A stretch of 64,000 bases of DNA from Escherichia phage BP9. Shown in pieces: positions 58,321 to 62,901 of this stretch (position 1 is the stretch's first letter; each line of letters starts with the position of its first letter). Under the pieces are notes generated by a model, which was given only the letters and a program-made list of their open reading frames with translations, had not been told where the DNA came from and did no database searches. The position numbers and the translations under genes are program-made. The DNA is taken from the sequence record PP488543.1. One strand, 5' to 3'.

Positions 58321-58728
58321 ATGTCTAAAATGCTATATATCGTGCGTGGTCTACCAGGGTCTGGCAAATCAACACTGGCAAATGCGCTATCTTTAGAGGG
58401 TCTGTATCCACATTTTGAGAACGACATGTTCTGGTACGACGATGATGGAAATTACAACTGGGATGCAAGTAAAGTCACACTTGCAGCAAAATGGTGCAAA
58501 GATAACGTAGAAGATATGATGCGTATGGGATACGACCGTATCGTGGTAAGTAATACGTTTACAAAAGAAAAATATGTGCAAAAATATATTGACATGGCAA
58601 TCAGTTATGGGTATAGTTATACCGTAATCGTGGTTGAAAACCGCCACGGTAATAAAAGCATTCATGCTTCAGACGAGGTTGTGGATCGTATGGAACGCCA
58701 ACTTAAAAACTGCATTAAACTTAAATGA
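58321..58728 (+). CDS. P-loop polynucleotide kinase-like protein
   Basis: ATG after GGAGGG; Walker A GLPGSGKST; 135 aa. Confidence 0.55.
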   Translation: MSKMLYIVRGLPGSGKSTLANALSLEGLYPHFENDMFWYDDDGNYNWDASKVTLAAKWCKDNVEDMMRMGYDRIVVSNTFTKEKYVQKYIDMAISYGYSYTVIVVENRHGNKSIHASDEVVDRMERQLKNCIKLK

Positions 58729-58735
58729 GGAATGT

Positions 58736-59290
58736 ATGAAATACTTTGTAACAAGCGACACACACTTTCTCCACCAGCGGGTCATGGAGTTTGATTCATG
58801 TCAAAAACACAGATCTCAGTATGATCACAATCTTGACAGTATGAATGCGGGAATCATCGCCGAGTGGAACTCTGTTGTGTCACCTGCAGACACTGTGTTC
58901 CACTTGGGGGATATTGCGTGCACTAATGATAAGAATATCAACAACTTACTTCCAGATATTCTAAATATGTTGAACGGACATATTATTCTTGTTCGTGGCA
59001 ACCATGACACAAGGACGACTGTCAGAATTATGAAAGAGTTCTATCATGAGGTTGTAGATTATTACGAGCTTCGCCACAACAAGAATTTGATCTGTATGAG
59101 CCATTACCAATTTGCAAAGTGGAACAGAAAGCATCACGGATCAGTCCAACTGTTCGGTCATGCTCACGGAACCACACAACAGTTGTTTGGCAGGCAGCTT
59201 GATGTCGGTTGGGATGTGTGGGGGAGACTCTTACCATTAGAAGAGGCATACCGTATTGCAATGAGTTTTGCTATTGACAGCGGGGAGTAA
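58736..59290 (+). CDS. calcineurin-type metallophosphoesterase
   Basis: SDTHF, HLGDIA, VRGNHD, GHAHG metallophosphatase motifs. Confidence 0.65.
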   Translation: MKYFVTSDTHFLHQRVMEFDSCQKHRSQYDHNLDSMNAGIIAEWNSVVSPADTVFHLGDIACTNDKNINNLLPDILNMLNGHIILVRGNHDTRTTVRIMKEFYHEVVDYYELRHNKNLICMSHYQFAKWNRKHHGSVQLFGHAHGTTQQLFGRQLDVGWDVWGRLLPLEEAYRIAMSFAIDSGE

Positions 59291-59337: not shown

Positions 59338-59688
59338 ATGAAAGATGGGGATAAGCTGCTATATCTTAAAGTCCCCCTTGAAATACTGTCTATGTCAAAA
59401 GTTTTGAATGACACAACTGGAGAGGTTGTTGTTCTTGACTTGTATGACAAGATTGTATACTGCTACCTGCACAACTGGTATAAGCTTGGAGGAAATTCAC
59501 GCTTCACACCCAGCACAAGGAAAATTGCAGCAGATGTTGGGATAAAGAAAACAAAAGCAGCAGCGTGCGTTAAAACTTTAGAGTGTGCAGGGGTGGTTGA
59601 AACATCCACACAAGGGAGAGGTAAAAGATGCACATTTTCCAAAGTTTTGCCGCCAGAAGAAGTTATTCGAATGTCAACAACTGGTTAG
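59338..59688 (+). CDS. putative HTH DNA-binding protein (116 aa)
   Basis: RBS AAGGAG; helix-turn-helix-like TRKIAADVGIKKTKAAACVKTLE. Confidence 0.45.
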   Translation: MKDGDKLLYLKVPLEILSMSKVLNDTTGEVVVLDLYDKIVYCYLHNWYKLGGNSRFTPSTRKIAADVGIKKTKAAACVKTLECAGVVETSTQGRGKRCTFSKVLPPEEVIRMSTTG

Positions 59689-59763
59689 ACCAGTAAAAAC
59701 TTAAATATCTGTACTATAAGGATTTGTATGTTTTATGTTCACCATGGAACAGAAACTATTAAC

Positions 59764-59823
59764 TGTCCGTCACGCGGACACATCTGTCCGTAATACGGAC
59801 ACTAACTGTCCGTGATACGGACA
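59764..59823. promoter_or_regulatory. three tandem palindromic operator-like sites TGTCCGT-N3/5-ACGGACA
   Basis: 59764-59780, 59785-59801, 59807-59823; centres 21-22 bp apart. Confidence 0.5.
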
Positions 59824-59960
59824 CATAAAGAATATAACTAAAATAACTAAATAATAAAAAATAAAAGATCTAGTACTTATGGTACTAAGTACATATACTT
59901 AACTTATGTAGAATATACTAGATCCTAAGTACCATGTTTTAAATTTATTACTTTCTATAG

Positions 59961-60180
59961 GTAGTGTCGGCCCTTCATTGGCACTCGCCTACGAGGGGCG
60001 AGATGCCGGGCCTCTATAGTGCACACAATAACAGAAGTGCATACATGCAGGACTGTTAACATGTGTGGGAGCGAAGCGATAGCGCAGGCCAAAGGCCGAG
60101 CACTAATGTGGACCACCGACGAAAGCTTGCCAGCGCCGGAAGGAGTCGGTTGAGAGCCTCCCGCGCGAGTTCGGATAAAG
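59961..60180 (+). ncRNA. GC-rich stem-rich segment: candidate structured RNA (class unknown)
   Basis: About 60% GC island in AT-rich DNA; multiple nested complementary segments; no ORF; strand not determined. Confidence 0.3.
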
Positions 60181-60327: not shown

Positions 60328-60906
60328 ATGAGTTCACGCAAAGATGCCCGTGAAAAGATTGCAAAACGTTATCAGGATGAAGAACAGATGGAGAAAACTT
60401 TCAAGTGGAAGCCAGGTTTCCAGCGTAATCATTCTAACGCTCGTGATCGTAAGCATCCGGATAAGTGGTTAACACCGCCAAATGATGGCATGCAAGTCGG
60501 TGATGAGAAAGAGCTATCGCCTGGAAAAGATGGCAACTACATTCGCACTAAGGAAGCAGGTCCAAAGGATGACAGCTATCTTGTAGATAAGGTTCTTGAT
60601 GGTATTGATGTAGATGTTGACACTGCACGAAACCTTTTTCTTGGTTGGTATCGTACAGGGTTTTTCGACATCAAGGCTATTCGTCGTGTTTGTGATATTA
60701 AAAAGTCTGCCTATGATGATGACTCTCTACATCGCACTCTGAGACAATACTCAGAGAGATATGGTCATCCAGTTATCACTCTTGACGATATTAACGAAGT
60801 GCTGTATCATGCAGAGGTTGTTGCAGGTAGATTCGGTGATGCATATCTCGGTATTCTTTCTGCAAAAGATGAGGTAATGTTAAATAAAATTTACTATGAA
60901 CGCTGA
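60328..60906 (+). CDS. hypothetical protein (192 aa)
   Basis: RBS GAGGAGG upstream of ATG. Confidence 0.55.
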   Translation: MSSRKDAREKIAKRYQDEEQMEKTFKWKPGFQRNHSNARDRKHPDKWLTPPNDGMQVGDEKELSPGKDGNYIRTKEAGPKDDSYLVDKVLDGIDVDVDTARNLFLGWYRTGFFDIKAIRRVCDIKKSAYDDDSLHRTLRQYSERYGHPVITLDDINEVLYHAEVVAGRFGDAYLGILSAKDEVMLNKIYYER

Positions 60907-61105
60907 GGAGCGCTTAATGAACAACCCGGTAGCAAAGAACTGTAATAAGTTCAACAAGTCTGCAATTCACACTGACAGGAAAAAGGGATGGTCCCCTGAT
61001 ATTGACGAGGAGCTTGAGGATTACTTTGAAGGTCTTGCCATCAACGCGGAGGAGATTGCGATTAAAGAATACGCAGACAGGAAGGATAAGGCCGGAATCT
61101 GTTGA
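60896..61105 (+). CDS. hypothetical protein (69 aa)
   Basis: Overlaps previous gene end; RBS GAGGAG. Confidence 0.4.
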   Translation: MNAEERLMNNPVAKNCNKFNKSAIHTDRKKGWSPDIDEELEDYFEGLAINAEEIAIKEYADRKDKAGIC

Positions 61106-61181
61106 CAAAAACAGTGTTACCTGATAAGATCTGCAATATGATGTGATGCAATTTTAACTTACGAGGTCTACAGGTAATGCT

Positions 61182-61424
61182 ATGTTTAAGGTTAAGCTCG
61201 TTTTTCGTTCCATGAATGAGGATTATTTAGAAGATGAAGGTGAATTTCGTGCACTGGATGATGCAATAGATTTTGCCAACGACTTAGCTTGTATGAATAC
61301 TGGTTATGGGTTATGCTGTTGGGATGGTGGTGTTCAGATCGGTGATAGCAAGATCTTCTACTTCTACCCTGAGCCTGATAACAAACAAATTAAGTATGTT
61401 TTATTTATTTGTGCTTTACAATGA
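61182..61424 (+). CDS. hypothetical acidic protein (80 aa)
   Basis: TTGACA-17-TAAGAT promoter-like upstream. Confidence 0.5.
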   Translation: MFKVKLVFRSMNEDYLEDEGEFRALDDAIDFANDLACMNTGYGLCCWDGGVQIGDSKIFYFYPEPDNKQIKYVLFICALQ

Positions 61425-61479
61425 GGTTGTTTTCGTGTATCATGATGAATATCCAATTTAAAGATGAATTTGATGGCTT

Positions 61480-61712
61480 TATCTCCGGATGCTTTGAAAC
61501 AGGGTTCGGAGAAGACTGAGTTCCCCTTAGAGGGCTTGATAGTGCACCACACTTAAAATGGTAGGGGGCAGCCAGCACATGACGATGTGACCCCAGCCAA
61601 CCTGTAACAAGGTCGAGCCGAAGCGCGGGTAATAGGCCTCTGGTAACCCACTTGTTGGGTCTTGCTGGTCCAGGACGCTGGACAAGTCGCAGGGAATATC
61701 TCCCTGCGGCGA
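61480..61712 (+). ncRNA. GC-rich stem-rich segment: candidate structured RNA or complex terminator
   Basis: Hairpins CGCAGGGA-ATAT-CTCCCTGCG, CCAG-GACG-CTGG, ACCCA-CTTGT-TGGGT; no ORF; lies upstream of the promoter at 61705. Confidence 0.3.
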
Positions 61713-61733
61713 ACTTGACAATCAGTACTTGCT
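61705..61733 (+). promoter_or_regulatory. sigma70-like promoter (TTGACA-17-TAAAAT)
   Basis: Upstream of 61772 gene. Confidence 0.45.
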
Positions 61734-61771
61734 ATGATAAAATCCACCTATCACGTGATAATGGAGGAAAC

Positions 61772-62110
61772 ATGGCGGATACAACTAAAAAGCGTCGCCG
61801 TAGAGGCAGACCTCTGAAAGAGGAGTCCAACGCCATTCAGCTAGAGAAGAACATCCTTGATATGAAGGAATCTTTTATAGCGATGGTTCCAGAAGCTCAC
61901 AAAGTTTTAAGAGAGCTGATGTTGGACCCGAAAACCAAACAAAATATTCGTCAAAGCATTGCAGAGTATGTTCTTGATAAGGCAGACCGAATGCAGGAAG
62001 AATATGATGAGATGTTTGGTGAAGAGGAAGAGGTGGTAGTGGAAGAGGCTGAAAAACCAGCACCTTTTATGCCATTTACTACAGAAATACAGCCTGTTAG
62101 CAATAGCTAA
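61772..62110 (+). CDS. basic DNA-binding-like protein (112 aa)
   Basis: ATG after GGAGGA; N-terminal KKRRRRGRP (AT-hook-like), acidic C-terminus. Confidence 0.5.
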   Translation: MADTTKKRRRRGRPLKEESNAIQLEKNILDMKESFIAMVPEAHKVLRELMLDPKTKQNIRQSIAEYVLDKADRMQEEYDEMFGEEEEVVVEEAEKPAPFMPFTTEIQPVSNS

Positions 62111-62119
62111 AATATTTTC

Positions 62120-62148
62120 TTGACAAACTTTGCTTAACAGTGTAATAT
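62120..62148 (+). promoter_or_regulatory. sigma70-like promoter (TTGACA-17-TAATAT) ahead of tRNA cluster
   Basis: TTGACA 62120-62125, TAATAT 62143-62148. Confidence 0.5.
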
Positions 62149-62206: not shown

Positions 62207-62281
62207 GCCCTGTTAGCTTAGTGGATAAAGCAGCGGCCTTCTAAGCCGTTGACACTGGTTCGAGTCCAGTACGGGGTGCCA
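62207..62281 (+). tRNA. tRNA-Arg (anticodon TCT)
   Basis: Hand-folded cloverleaf: acceptor GCCCTGT/ACGGGGT, D-stem GCTT/AAGC, anticodon loop CTTCTAA, T-loop TTCGAGT, encoded CCA. Confidence 0.7.
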
Positions 62282-62411
62282 AGTTCTTTTTAATGTAGCT
62301 TACTTTAGCAGAGTAAATCTTCGGCAAGTGGCGGTAACCACTTTACCGATACCTCATAGTTAGTGGTTAGAACACTAGCTATTTTAAAAAGAATTTAAAT
62401 ATTAGTATTTA

Positions 62412-62499
62412 GGTGAGTTAATTCCGTAGGGGTAGCGGGGCAGACTGTAAATCTGTTATCATTGCGATTCGGGTGGTTCGACTCCATCACTCACCACCA
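62412..62499 (+). tRNA. tRNA-Tyr (anticodon GTA), long variable arm
   Basis: Acceptor GGTGAGT/ACTCACC, anticodon loop CTGTAAA, T-loop TTCGACT, CCA encoded; D-arm irregular in hand fold. Confidence 0.55.
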
Positions 62500-62802: not shown

Positions 62803-62901
62803 GCTAGGTAAGCCCTTTGGCAAGGGCGAGGATTTTTAATCCTGAAAATAGACGAGGTAGTCGTTGAATACATAGGTGGTTCGATTCCACCGCCTAGCAC
62901 C
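62803..62901 (+). tRNA. aberrant tRNA-like element (99 nt; anticodon-loop TTT, oversized variable region)
   Basis: Acceptor GCTAGGT/GCCTAGC, D-arm GCCC/GGGC, loop TTTTTAA, T-arm GGTGG-TTCGATT-CCACC, but ~30 nt between anticodon stem and T-arm. Confidence 0.3.

Follow-up and report, generated by a model that had tools for sequence, protein, structure and literature searches.

A predicted pseudoknotted non-coding RNA at the head of the tRNA cluster of rV5-like phages

Introduction

What does an rV5-like phage keep in the G+C-rich gap ahead of its tRNA genes? We address this question for Escherichia phage BP9, an rV5-like myovirus of the genus Vequintavirus, using a stretch of 64,000 nucleotides (sequence record PP488543.1; hereafter the window, whose numbering and plus strand we use throughout). 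The gap is flanked by an 80-amino-acid (aa) gene (61182-61424; phrog_5676) and a 112-aa gene (61772-62110; phrog_3330), and the first phage tRNA gene follows downstream of both at 62207. Its G+C content is the maximum of the window (0.60 in 150-nt windows versus a mean of 0.426) and parallels that of the tRNA genes in the same AT-rich genome, which we count as suggestive of a stable RNA. A preliminary description of the segment 61480-61712 had listed a series of hairpins, every one of which is present in the sequence, and had offered an independent small RNA, a 3' untranslated region (3'-UTR) element or a protein-binding site as explanations. Comparison with relatives now points to the first of these as the best backed: the gap holds what we predict to be a previously undescribed conserved non-coding RNA of about 165-200 nt with a pseudoknotted fold. 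The phages concerned are common coliphages that are used therapeutically and form part of the BASEL collection.

Results

The element is conserved in two phage clades

The region 61400-61780 is 92-100% identical to 118 phage records, all 118 of which carry the full stretch, and 100% identical to Escherichia phage vB_EcoM_YN3. The YN3 annotation places only an open reading frame (ORF) of 32 aa in the gap (61421-61519), and no RNA gene is marked at the element in any annotation that we inspected. The queries used to find relatives were the 112-aa and 80-aa proteins and conserved DNA patterns, and the relatives that carry the element fall into two clades only: clade I, which is Vequintavirus, and a sister clade, clade II, composed of uncultured contigs of about 120-140 kb (L004-L007, L021, L023 and L026). 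The local gene order of clade II matches, running from a 62-aa gene through the 80-aa gene, a micro-ORF, the element and the 112-aa gene to tRNA-Arg and tRNA-Tyr, and the alignment of the two clades set the boundaries of the element.

Several scans delimit this distribution. An exact-pattern scan of viral contigs returned six contigs, all from the two clades, and searches with the neighbouring proteins returned the same six; a pattern scan of metagenomes added further contigs of the two clades along with two chance matches (L022, L024). As to a host origin, the element has no match in 5,426 E. coli genomes. The single plasmid match, in PLSDB, is a 137.6-kb record that is probably an rV5-like genome, and the one match in a scan of GTDB genomes (L038) is probably due to chance because the covariance model of the element finds no element there. 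Within the window and the rest of the closest genome the element is single-copy, with one covariance-model match (61518-61714, 241 bits). The region of this E. coli phage is 96-98% identical to that of eighteen records (MG0656xx) that bear the name 'Campylobacter phage', a naming that probably reflects mislabelling or contamination of the collection.

Conservation between the clades is uneven along the locus. Compared with flanking genes that are 68-69% identical between clades I and II, the 5' domain of the element (61520-61566) is 94% identical and the interval 61596-61640 is 80% identical, while identity is 40% across the H3-H4 hairpins (61567-61595; all pairs kept) and 43% in the 3' part (61641-61714). 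We conclude from this sequence comparison that the fold of the element is under purifying selection.

The same comparison bears on the idea that the element is a decaying remnant of former tRNA genes, devoid of present function. Neither nhmmer nor the covariance model detected a copy near the 112-aa gene of Mydovirus, Seunavirus, Henunavirus, Certrevirus or ChuuTotoro. All Vequintavirinae keep the 112-aa protein in their tRNA arrays; among the other genera sampled, its gene lies inside the array with tRNA genes (tRNA-Cys or tRNA-Leu) directly upstream, and in ChuuTotoro tRNA genes and two ORFs separate the homologues of the 80-aa and 112-aa genes. Since related genera carry tRNA genes at this position, the element occupies a tRNA-gene slot, as a remnant would. 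However, ARAGORN, which calls six tRNAs in the window, makes no call at the element, the Rfam tRNA model (RF00005) has no match at E <= 10, and there is no similarity to the tRNA loci of other genera. Better conservation than that of the flanking genes, together with compensatory changes, largely refutes decay, and we give this reading a very small chance. A tRNA-like structure, judged by eye from the 'anticodon-like' P2 loop and the ACG loops, was also rejected because its stems and loops have the wrong geometry: the P2 loop has 9-11 nt, and the 6-nt P5 loop lacks a T-loop sequence.

Covariation supports a long-range fold

Covariance models were built from the clade I alignment, 19-20 distinct sequences were realigned and the pairs were counted (helices are listed in Table 1). 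In the model with H3 and H4, 99.0% of the cells are paired and 16 pairs have changed on both sides; in the model with the long-range helix the values are 97.8% and 19. These values were reached in 0/500 shuffles, a control that ignores the shared ancestry of the sequences, and sliding the partners by 1-3 columns leaves only 28-47% of the cells paired. We infer that at least five helices are supported by covariation, the long-range helix among them. The comparative covariation proposed in the preliminary description as a check thus yielded both compensatory changes and a structure conserved in relatives.

The changes are instructive helix by helix. In H3, GGGG/CCCC of clade I is replaced by GGAAC/GUUCC in clade II with pairing intact, and in H4 CACAU-GACG-AUGUG becomes CUACG-GACG-CGUAG, every pair and the loop being kept; together, 7/9 pairs of H3 and H4 have changed on both sides with 96-100% of the cells paired. 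The long-range pseudoknot helix (3/5 pairs changed on both sides) exists in four complementary versions, GCCAG/CUGGU, GAGG/CCUC, GUGAGGG/CCCUUAC (L004) and GAGGG/CCCUU (L021). H9, in which 4/5 pairs have changed on both sides, has varied independently within clade I (CUCAG/CUGAG in L003, UCUAG/CUAGG in L035 and two G-U pairs in L036). Px covaries as well: one of its positions is G-U, G-C or A-U, and a second is C-G or G-C. The loop of P2 has one variable position (U/C/G/A) and an A-run of varying length. Hairpins of at least 4 bp with a GACG tetraloop occur just twice on the plus strand of the window, both inside the element. At the periphery, P7 is deleted in two phages and is therefore not essential, the terminal hairpin occurs in clade I and is absent from clade II, and a predicted hairpin upstream of the core (61483-61511) is kept via G-U pairs in L003 and L027. 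A closing stem GAGUUC/GAACUU (61518-61523/61711-61716) is possible and is not claimed here: it shows no covariation, and its clade II partner lies elsewhere.

Because H3 and the long-range helix both covary, they would form a nested double pseudoknot or else represent alternative RNA states. The strand order H3(5')-pseudoknot(5')-H4 hairpin-H3(3')-Px domain-pseudoknot(3'), with junctions of 0-4 nt, matches the nested double-pseudoknot order P1-P2-P3-P1'-P4-P2' of ribozymes of the hepatitis delta virus (HDV) type, which occur beside phage tRNAs as theta ribozymes and in which J4/2 opens with the catalytic cytosine (PMC10879173). By this token the element could be a self-cleaving ribozyme that cuts a polycistronic early transcript or a tRNA precursor. 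Yet its J4/2 equivalent is AU, CU, U, AUAG, UA, UC or absent, with no conserved cytosine, its 'P1' has 4-5 bp and begins with G-C, and at a cut-off as lax as E <= 10 no ribozyme family of Rfam is hit. Moreover, its conservation is strongest upstream of the presumed cut, a side on which HDV-like ribozymes have no sequence requirement. In HDV-like ribozymes P3 consists of 3 bp with an L3 of 7-8 nt that forms P1.1, whereas the 'P3' of the element, H4, has five pairs, four of them covarying, and a 4-nt GACG loop, so that there is no L3 and no P1.1. A ribozyme of this type is accordingly very improbable in our estimate. We also find it distinctly unlikely that the element represents a new phage RNA class with a catalytic or ligand- or protein-sensing core, HDV-like in strand order and devoid of HDV active-site features. 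If it did, possible roles would be the processing or licensing of transcripts from the phage tRNA region, or the neutralisation of a host defence directed at RNA or tRNA, and the element would have replaced part of the tRNA array of the sister genera.

The fold belongs to the plus strand and the element is non-coding

The model with the long-range helix contains 32 G-U cells (pseudoknot helix 16, Px 10, H9 5, P7 1). As these pairs would be A-C mismatches on the other strand, the transcribed strand is the plus strand, and all promoters around the element face the same way. This asymmetry weighs on explanations that do without RNA, namely a site acting as DNA (a protein operator, or a signal for replication or packaging) or a gene for a small protein, on whichever strand. 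Such explanations would suit the invariance of the whole 45-nt 5' domain, its stems included, the presence of an origin-like region 1.6 kb upstream and the 64-aa ORFs of the minus strand. However, G-U pairs are tolerated on the plus strand only, long-range and hairpin covariation is meaningless for duplex DNA, and indels of 1, 2, 10 and 14 nt within clade I shift the frame and break the 64-aa ORFs. No conserved ORF was found in the element. We regard a DNA site or a protein gene as hardly probable.

The preliminary description had taken the whole segment to be non-coding, which holds for the conserved unit 61518-61716; 61480-61519, by contrast, lies inside the 32-aa ORF. This small ORF and the upstream gene's stop codon overlap (ATGA), and the 21 nt of the ORF's KDEFDGF core are 100% identical between the clades. 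Its clade II counterpart (L005 2673-2699) has 8 codons, MKDEFDGF, and its own Shine-Dalgarno sequence. The two codon changes in the core within clade I, GAA>GAG and TTT>TTC, are both synonymous, so the KDEFDGF ORF is probably translated.

Promoters separate the element from its neighbours

The best evidence for the element as an RNA gene in its own right comes, at the level of sequence, from clade II. There, a predicted sigma-70 promoter, TTGACA-17-TGcTATACT (L005 2700-2728, 11/12 match; TGnTATACT as a pattern), precedes the first conserved base: it ends at 2728, the covariance-model match to the element starts at 2733, and the transcript is expected to start at that first conserved base. The hexamers of this promoter are conserved and its spacer varies. 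In BP9 the hairpin 61483-61511 sits where clade II has the promoter, and the candidate for clade I (61415-61443) lies further upstream, with TATCAT, TATTAT or TATGAT as the -10 hexamer across the clade and A2 and T6 kept. The TTGACA-17-TAAAAT promoter that the preliminary description had placed at 61705 exists, albeit at 61715-61743; its -35 hexamer overlaps GAACUU (61711-61716), the 3' strand of the possible closing stem. A further consensus promoter lies at 62120.

A search of 61440-61780 revealed nothing resembling a terminator. After the terminal hairpin comes GCGAACUUGACA and not a U tract, so an intrinsic terminator was discarded, as was an Hfq-type base-pairing small RNA, which would combine a single-stranded seed with a U-tailed terminator, the latter missing at the element. 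The earlier judgement that the segment is too long and structured for a simple terminator therefore stands, given this negative search and the conserved plus-strand fold. With no terminator after the element in either clade, its 3' end would be made by processing, or transcripts would run on into the 112-aa gene.

This arrangement is relevant to the possibility that the element serves as the 3'-UTR of the upstream operon (60328-61519), either as a factor-dependent terminator or as a barrier to 3' exonucleases that stabilises the mRNA. In BP9 the element directly follows the small ORF and has GC-rich hairpins at its end, as such a role would have it. On the other hand, there is neither a U tract nor a terminator call, conservation peaks in the 5' domain, the hairpins at the end are dispensable or confined to one clade, clade II has a promoter between the upstream genes and the element, and a pseudoknot with invariant junctions far exceeds what the role needs. 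A 3'-UTR function is, in our view, improbable.

Our main rival explanation is a cis-acting leader, in which the RNA, while being made, would alter the transcribing polymerase or the transcript and thereby ensure full transcription of the long untranslated tRNA array downstream, be it by put-like or rrn-like antitermination, by anti-Rho action or as a site for RNase processing or stabilisation. Being untranslated, tRNA arrays are natural Rho targets. The element lies directly 3' of the promoter in clade II, and the 112-aa gene and the tRNA array follow with no terminator between. There is precedent in the put RNAs (putL, putR) of phage HK022, which are ~70 nt long, comprise two stem-loops, fold just downstream of early promoters and require no protein factors (PMC9378689). 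However, the consensus promoters at 61715 and 62120 lie between the element and its supposed targets, so most downstream transcripts would never contain it; the element is more than twice the length of put and pseudoknotted; and larger tRNA arrays are transcribed in its absence in other genera of the Vequintavirinae. We therefore rate a cis-acting leader as unlikely.

The upstream segment 59961-60180 is unrelated to the element

The preliminary description had also proposed that the element and a segment at 59961-60180 bracket an operon. The covariance model of the element, run with its filters off, detected nothing at 59961-60180, the best BLAST match between the two covers 12/13 nt (E = 0.29), and a shared motif, ATAGTGCAC, is not kept among the orthologues of the upstream segment; on these grounds we rejected a paralogous relationship. 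In the sister clade neither blastn nor a survey of GC-rich islands found a counterpart of 59961-60180 within 3 kb upstream, and so bracketing does not hold up; also missing there are the initiator-like gene and the 192-aa gene. The segment itself is conserved in all 118 Vequintavirus records (91-100% identity), has undergone compensatory change at least once (GUGGACCAC to GCGGGCCGC in L003), and is probably a second structured RNA, unrelated to the element. It has no credible Rfam match, only a weak one to rli43 at 59800-60015 (24.5 bits versus a gathering score of 100).

Table 1. Coordinates of the predicted RNA element and of adjoining features in the window
Feature	Coordinates	Strand	Remarks
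Candidate sigma-70 promoter of the element in clade I, TTTACA-17-TATCAT	61415..61443	+	10/12 match
Small ORF, 32 aa	61421..61519	+	KDEFDGF core 61460-61480; annotated in PV763136; ends at start of RNA core
Upstream hairpin CUCCGGA/UUCGGAG	61483..61511	+	clade I only; within 3' end of small ORF
Whole conserved RNA element	61518..61716	+	core 61520-61644, variable 3' part to 61716
P1 hairpin CCC-CUUAG(A)-GGG	61524..61534	+	pairs 61524-61526/61532-61534; invariant
Single-stranded junction CUUGAUAGUGC	61535..61545	+	identical in all 20 distinct sequences, both clades
P2 hairpin ACCA/UGGU, A-rich 9-11 nt loop CACUNAAAA	61546..61562	+	stem invariant
H3, enclosing H4	61565..61594	+	GGGG 61565-61568 / CCCC 61591-61594
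Pseudoknot helix, 5' strand GCCAG	61571..61575	+	within H3/H4 internal loop
H4	61576-61580 / 61585-61589	+	CACAU/AUGUG; loop GACG 61581-61584
Px helix domain	61596..61637	+	GCC 61596-61598 / GGC 61635-61637; closes P5, P6 and GGUAAU
P5	61600-61603 / 61610-61613	+	ACCU/AGGU; invariant; 6-nt loop
P6	61617-61618 / 61625-61626	+	GC/GC; C-G to G-C in L003
GGUAAU	61628-61633	+	conserved, invariant, inside Px domain
Pseudoknot helix, 3' strand CUGGU	61640..61644	+	pairs with GCCAG 61571-61575
P7 hairpin CCCA-CUUGU-UGGG	61647..61659	+	deleted in L029 and L032 (phiWec189)
P8 CUUG/CAAG with H9	61661..61686	+	
H9	61669-61673 / 61678-61682	+	UCCAG/CUGGA; loop GACG 61674-61677
Terminal hairpin CGCAGGGA/TCCCTGCG	61688-61695 / 61701-61708	+	CGCAGGG(A)/(U)CCCUGCG; variable loop; no U tract
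Promoter of the 112-aa gene, TTGACA-17-TAAAAT	61715..61743	+	TG extended -10; 11/12 match; both clades

Neighbouring genes and sequence features

Sequence searches of Pfam, PHROGs and the PDB assigned no function to the 80-aa and 112-aa neighbour proteins. The N-terminus of the 112-aa protein (61772-61830) has an arginine-rich segment, TKKRRRRGRPLKEE, that resembles an AT-hook or an arginine-rich RNA-binding motif, and the 5' UTR of its gene contains a perfect 12-bp palindrome, TATCACGTGATA, at 61749-61760. In the sister clade (L005 2914-2955), CUCCAGA in the promoter spacer is complementary to a UCUGGAG that overlaps the Shine-Dalgarno sequence; read-through transcripts from the element's own promoter could thereby mask the ribosome-binding site.

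Upstream, the origin-like module (59338-59950) begins with a 116-aa helix-turn-helix protein that matches a PHROG 'replication initiation protein' (phrog_12838, E = 5e-80), continues with three palindromic repeats TGTCCGT-N3-ACGGACA at a spacing of 21-22 bp (59760-59826), and ends in a tract of 21-26% G+C directly after the repeats (59830-59950). Near the tRNA region, a P-loop kinase (AAA_33) adjoins a calcineurin-like phosphoesterase (58321-59290), a pair that recalls the polynucleotide kinase/phosphatase enzymes of RNA repair.

The tRNA cluster has peculiarities of its own. A 128-nt insertion (62284-62411) separates tRNA-Arg(UCU) from tRNA-Tyr(GUA), two genes that are only a few bases apart in phiWec189 and in the sister clade. 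ARAGORN misses the tRNA-Tyr copy (62412-62496), to which the Rfam tRNA model gives 39 bits, and paired changes in the acceptor and anticodon stems distinguish it from the phiWec189 copy. A tRNA-like gene at 62803-62901 has an insertion of ~26 nt after the anticodon arm; ARAGORN reports an undetermined tRNA with a 4-base anticodon, and the Rfam tRNA score of 31 bits is barely over threshold.

Discussion

Taken together, covariation, strand asymmetry and conservation indicate that the element is very probably a functional structured RNA on the plus strand. As to its role, we tentatively favour a trans-acting, protein-binding stable RNA, a reading whose chance we put at or slightly below even. 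Under this proposal, host sigma-70 RNA polymerase would make the RNA early in infection. In the sister clade its start would be the first conserved base, set by a consensus promoter of its own, and in BP9 transcription would begin from 61415-61443 or at promoters lying further upstream. The RNA would accumulate alongside the phage tRNAs as a stable product of the tRNA-region transcription units, with ends that, for want of a terminator, would be made by processing. It would then act in trans by being bound, serving a protein of phage or host as scaffold or decoy to which it presents the invariant single-stranded junction and the GACG loops.

Several observations count against this interpretation and are best considered jointly. 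The alignments were fitted to the structure models, and with two clades only, the case for H3 and the case for H4 each come down to what is essentially a single evolutionary split. P1, P2 and P5 never vary, so covariation speaks neither for nor against them, and their invariance could reflect sequence recognition instead of pairing. Folding energies are weak: marginal for 61470-61715 (z = -1.84; 6/200 shuffles as stable), little better for 61518-61716 (z = -2.30; 4/200) and unfavourable for the sister-clade copy as cut inside its last hairpin (z = +0.95). The 3' third of the element is variable and partly deletable, and what comes after the last hairpins, GCGAACUU in clade I and AAUCUAUU in clade II, defines no 3' end. 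Finally, no promoter abuts the core of the element in BP9.

A strictly conserved pseudoknotted RNA at the head of a tRNA cluster offers a concrete and cheap experimental target. The element would be a second, unrelated example of a non-tRNA RNA in a phage tRNA cluster, and its defined fold opens the question of function to tests in a tractable system. It also adds a family that current RNA libraries have missed.

Comparison with known RNA families and systems

The Infernal/Rfam scan suggested in the preliminary description yielded no family match to the element. None of the 4227 models of Rfam 15 hit 61480-61716 at the gathering threshold, and none hit a 3.1-kb region at E <= 10. With 341 nt around the element as query, the sole match fell outside it (61736-61772, minus strand, E = 5.9), and the clade II copy had no match. 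Our literature searches on non-coding RNAs or transcriptomes of rV5 and Vequintavirus returned nothing relevant.

Individual motifs were also compared. A K-turn or C/D-box reading of UGAUAG was dropped because clade II has no CUGA partner, and a CsrA sponge because GGA is missing from some loops. An analogy to lambda N/boxB, which rested on the arginine-rich N-terminus of the 112-aa protein, was set aside: it would call for GNRA-like pentaloops where the element has tetraloops, and hairpins of this kind are missing from other genera that encode the protein. The analogy survives as a lead only.

The guanidine-II riboswitch (mini-ykkC) consists of two hairpins with ACGR tetraloops closed by G-C pairs, and the element likewise has two hairpins with a conserved ACG-containing tetraloop. 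Unlike those of the riboswitch, its loops are GACG in a register supported by covariation, and the hairpins are embedded in a larger fold. An alternative loop register in clade II would give ACGC; the guanidine-II model (RF01068) has no match at E <= 10.

Like the put RNAs of HK022, which act as RNA and not through a protein product, the element follows a sigma-70 promoter, in its case in clade II. Beyond size and pseudoknotting, the two differ in that one put stem-loop forms a triplex and put occurs as two paralogous copies per genome, whereas the element is single-copy, and in that promoters separate the element from the genes to be served.

The closest likeness in kind may be to 'species 1 and 2' (rnaC and rnaD) of phage T4, structured non-tRNA RNAs of ~120-140 nt whose genes lie within or beside the tRNA cluster, and which are expressed together with the tRNAs and released from tRNA precursor transcripts by processing. 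To our knowledge, these RNAs have lacked a function for decades. The element similarly adjoins a phage tRNA cluster. It differs from the T4 RNAs in its pseudoknotted core and in having its own promoter in the sister clade. We therefore view the element as apparently new in sequence and fold and, by analogy, as resembling in kind the stable RNAs of the T4 tRNA cluster.

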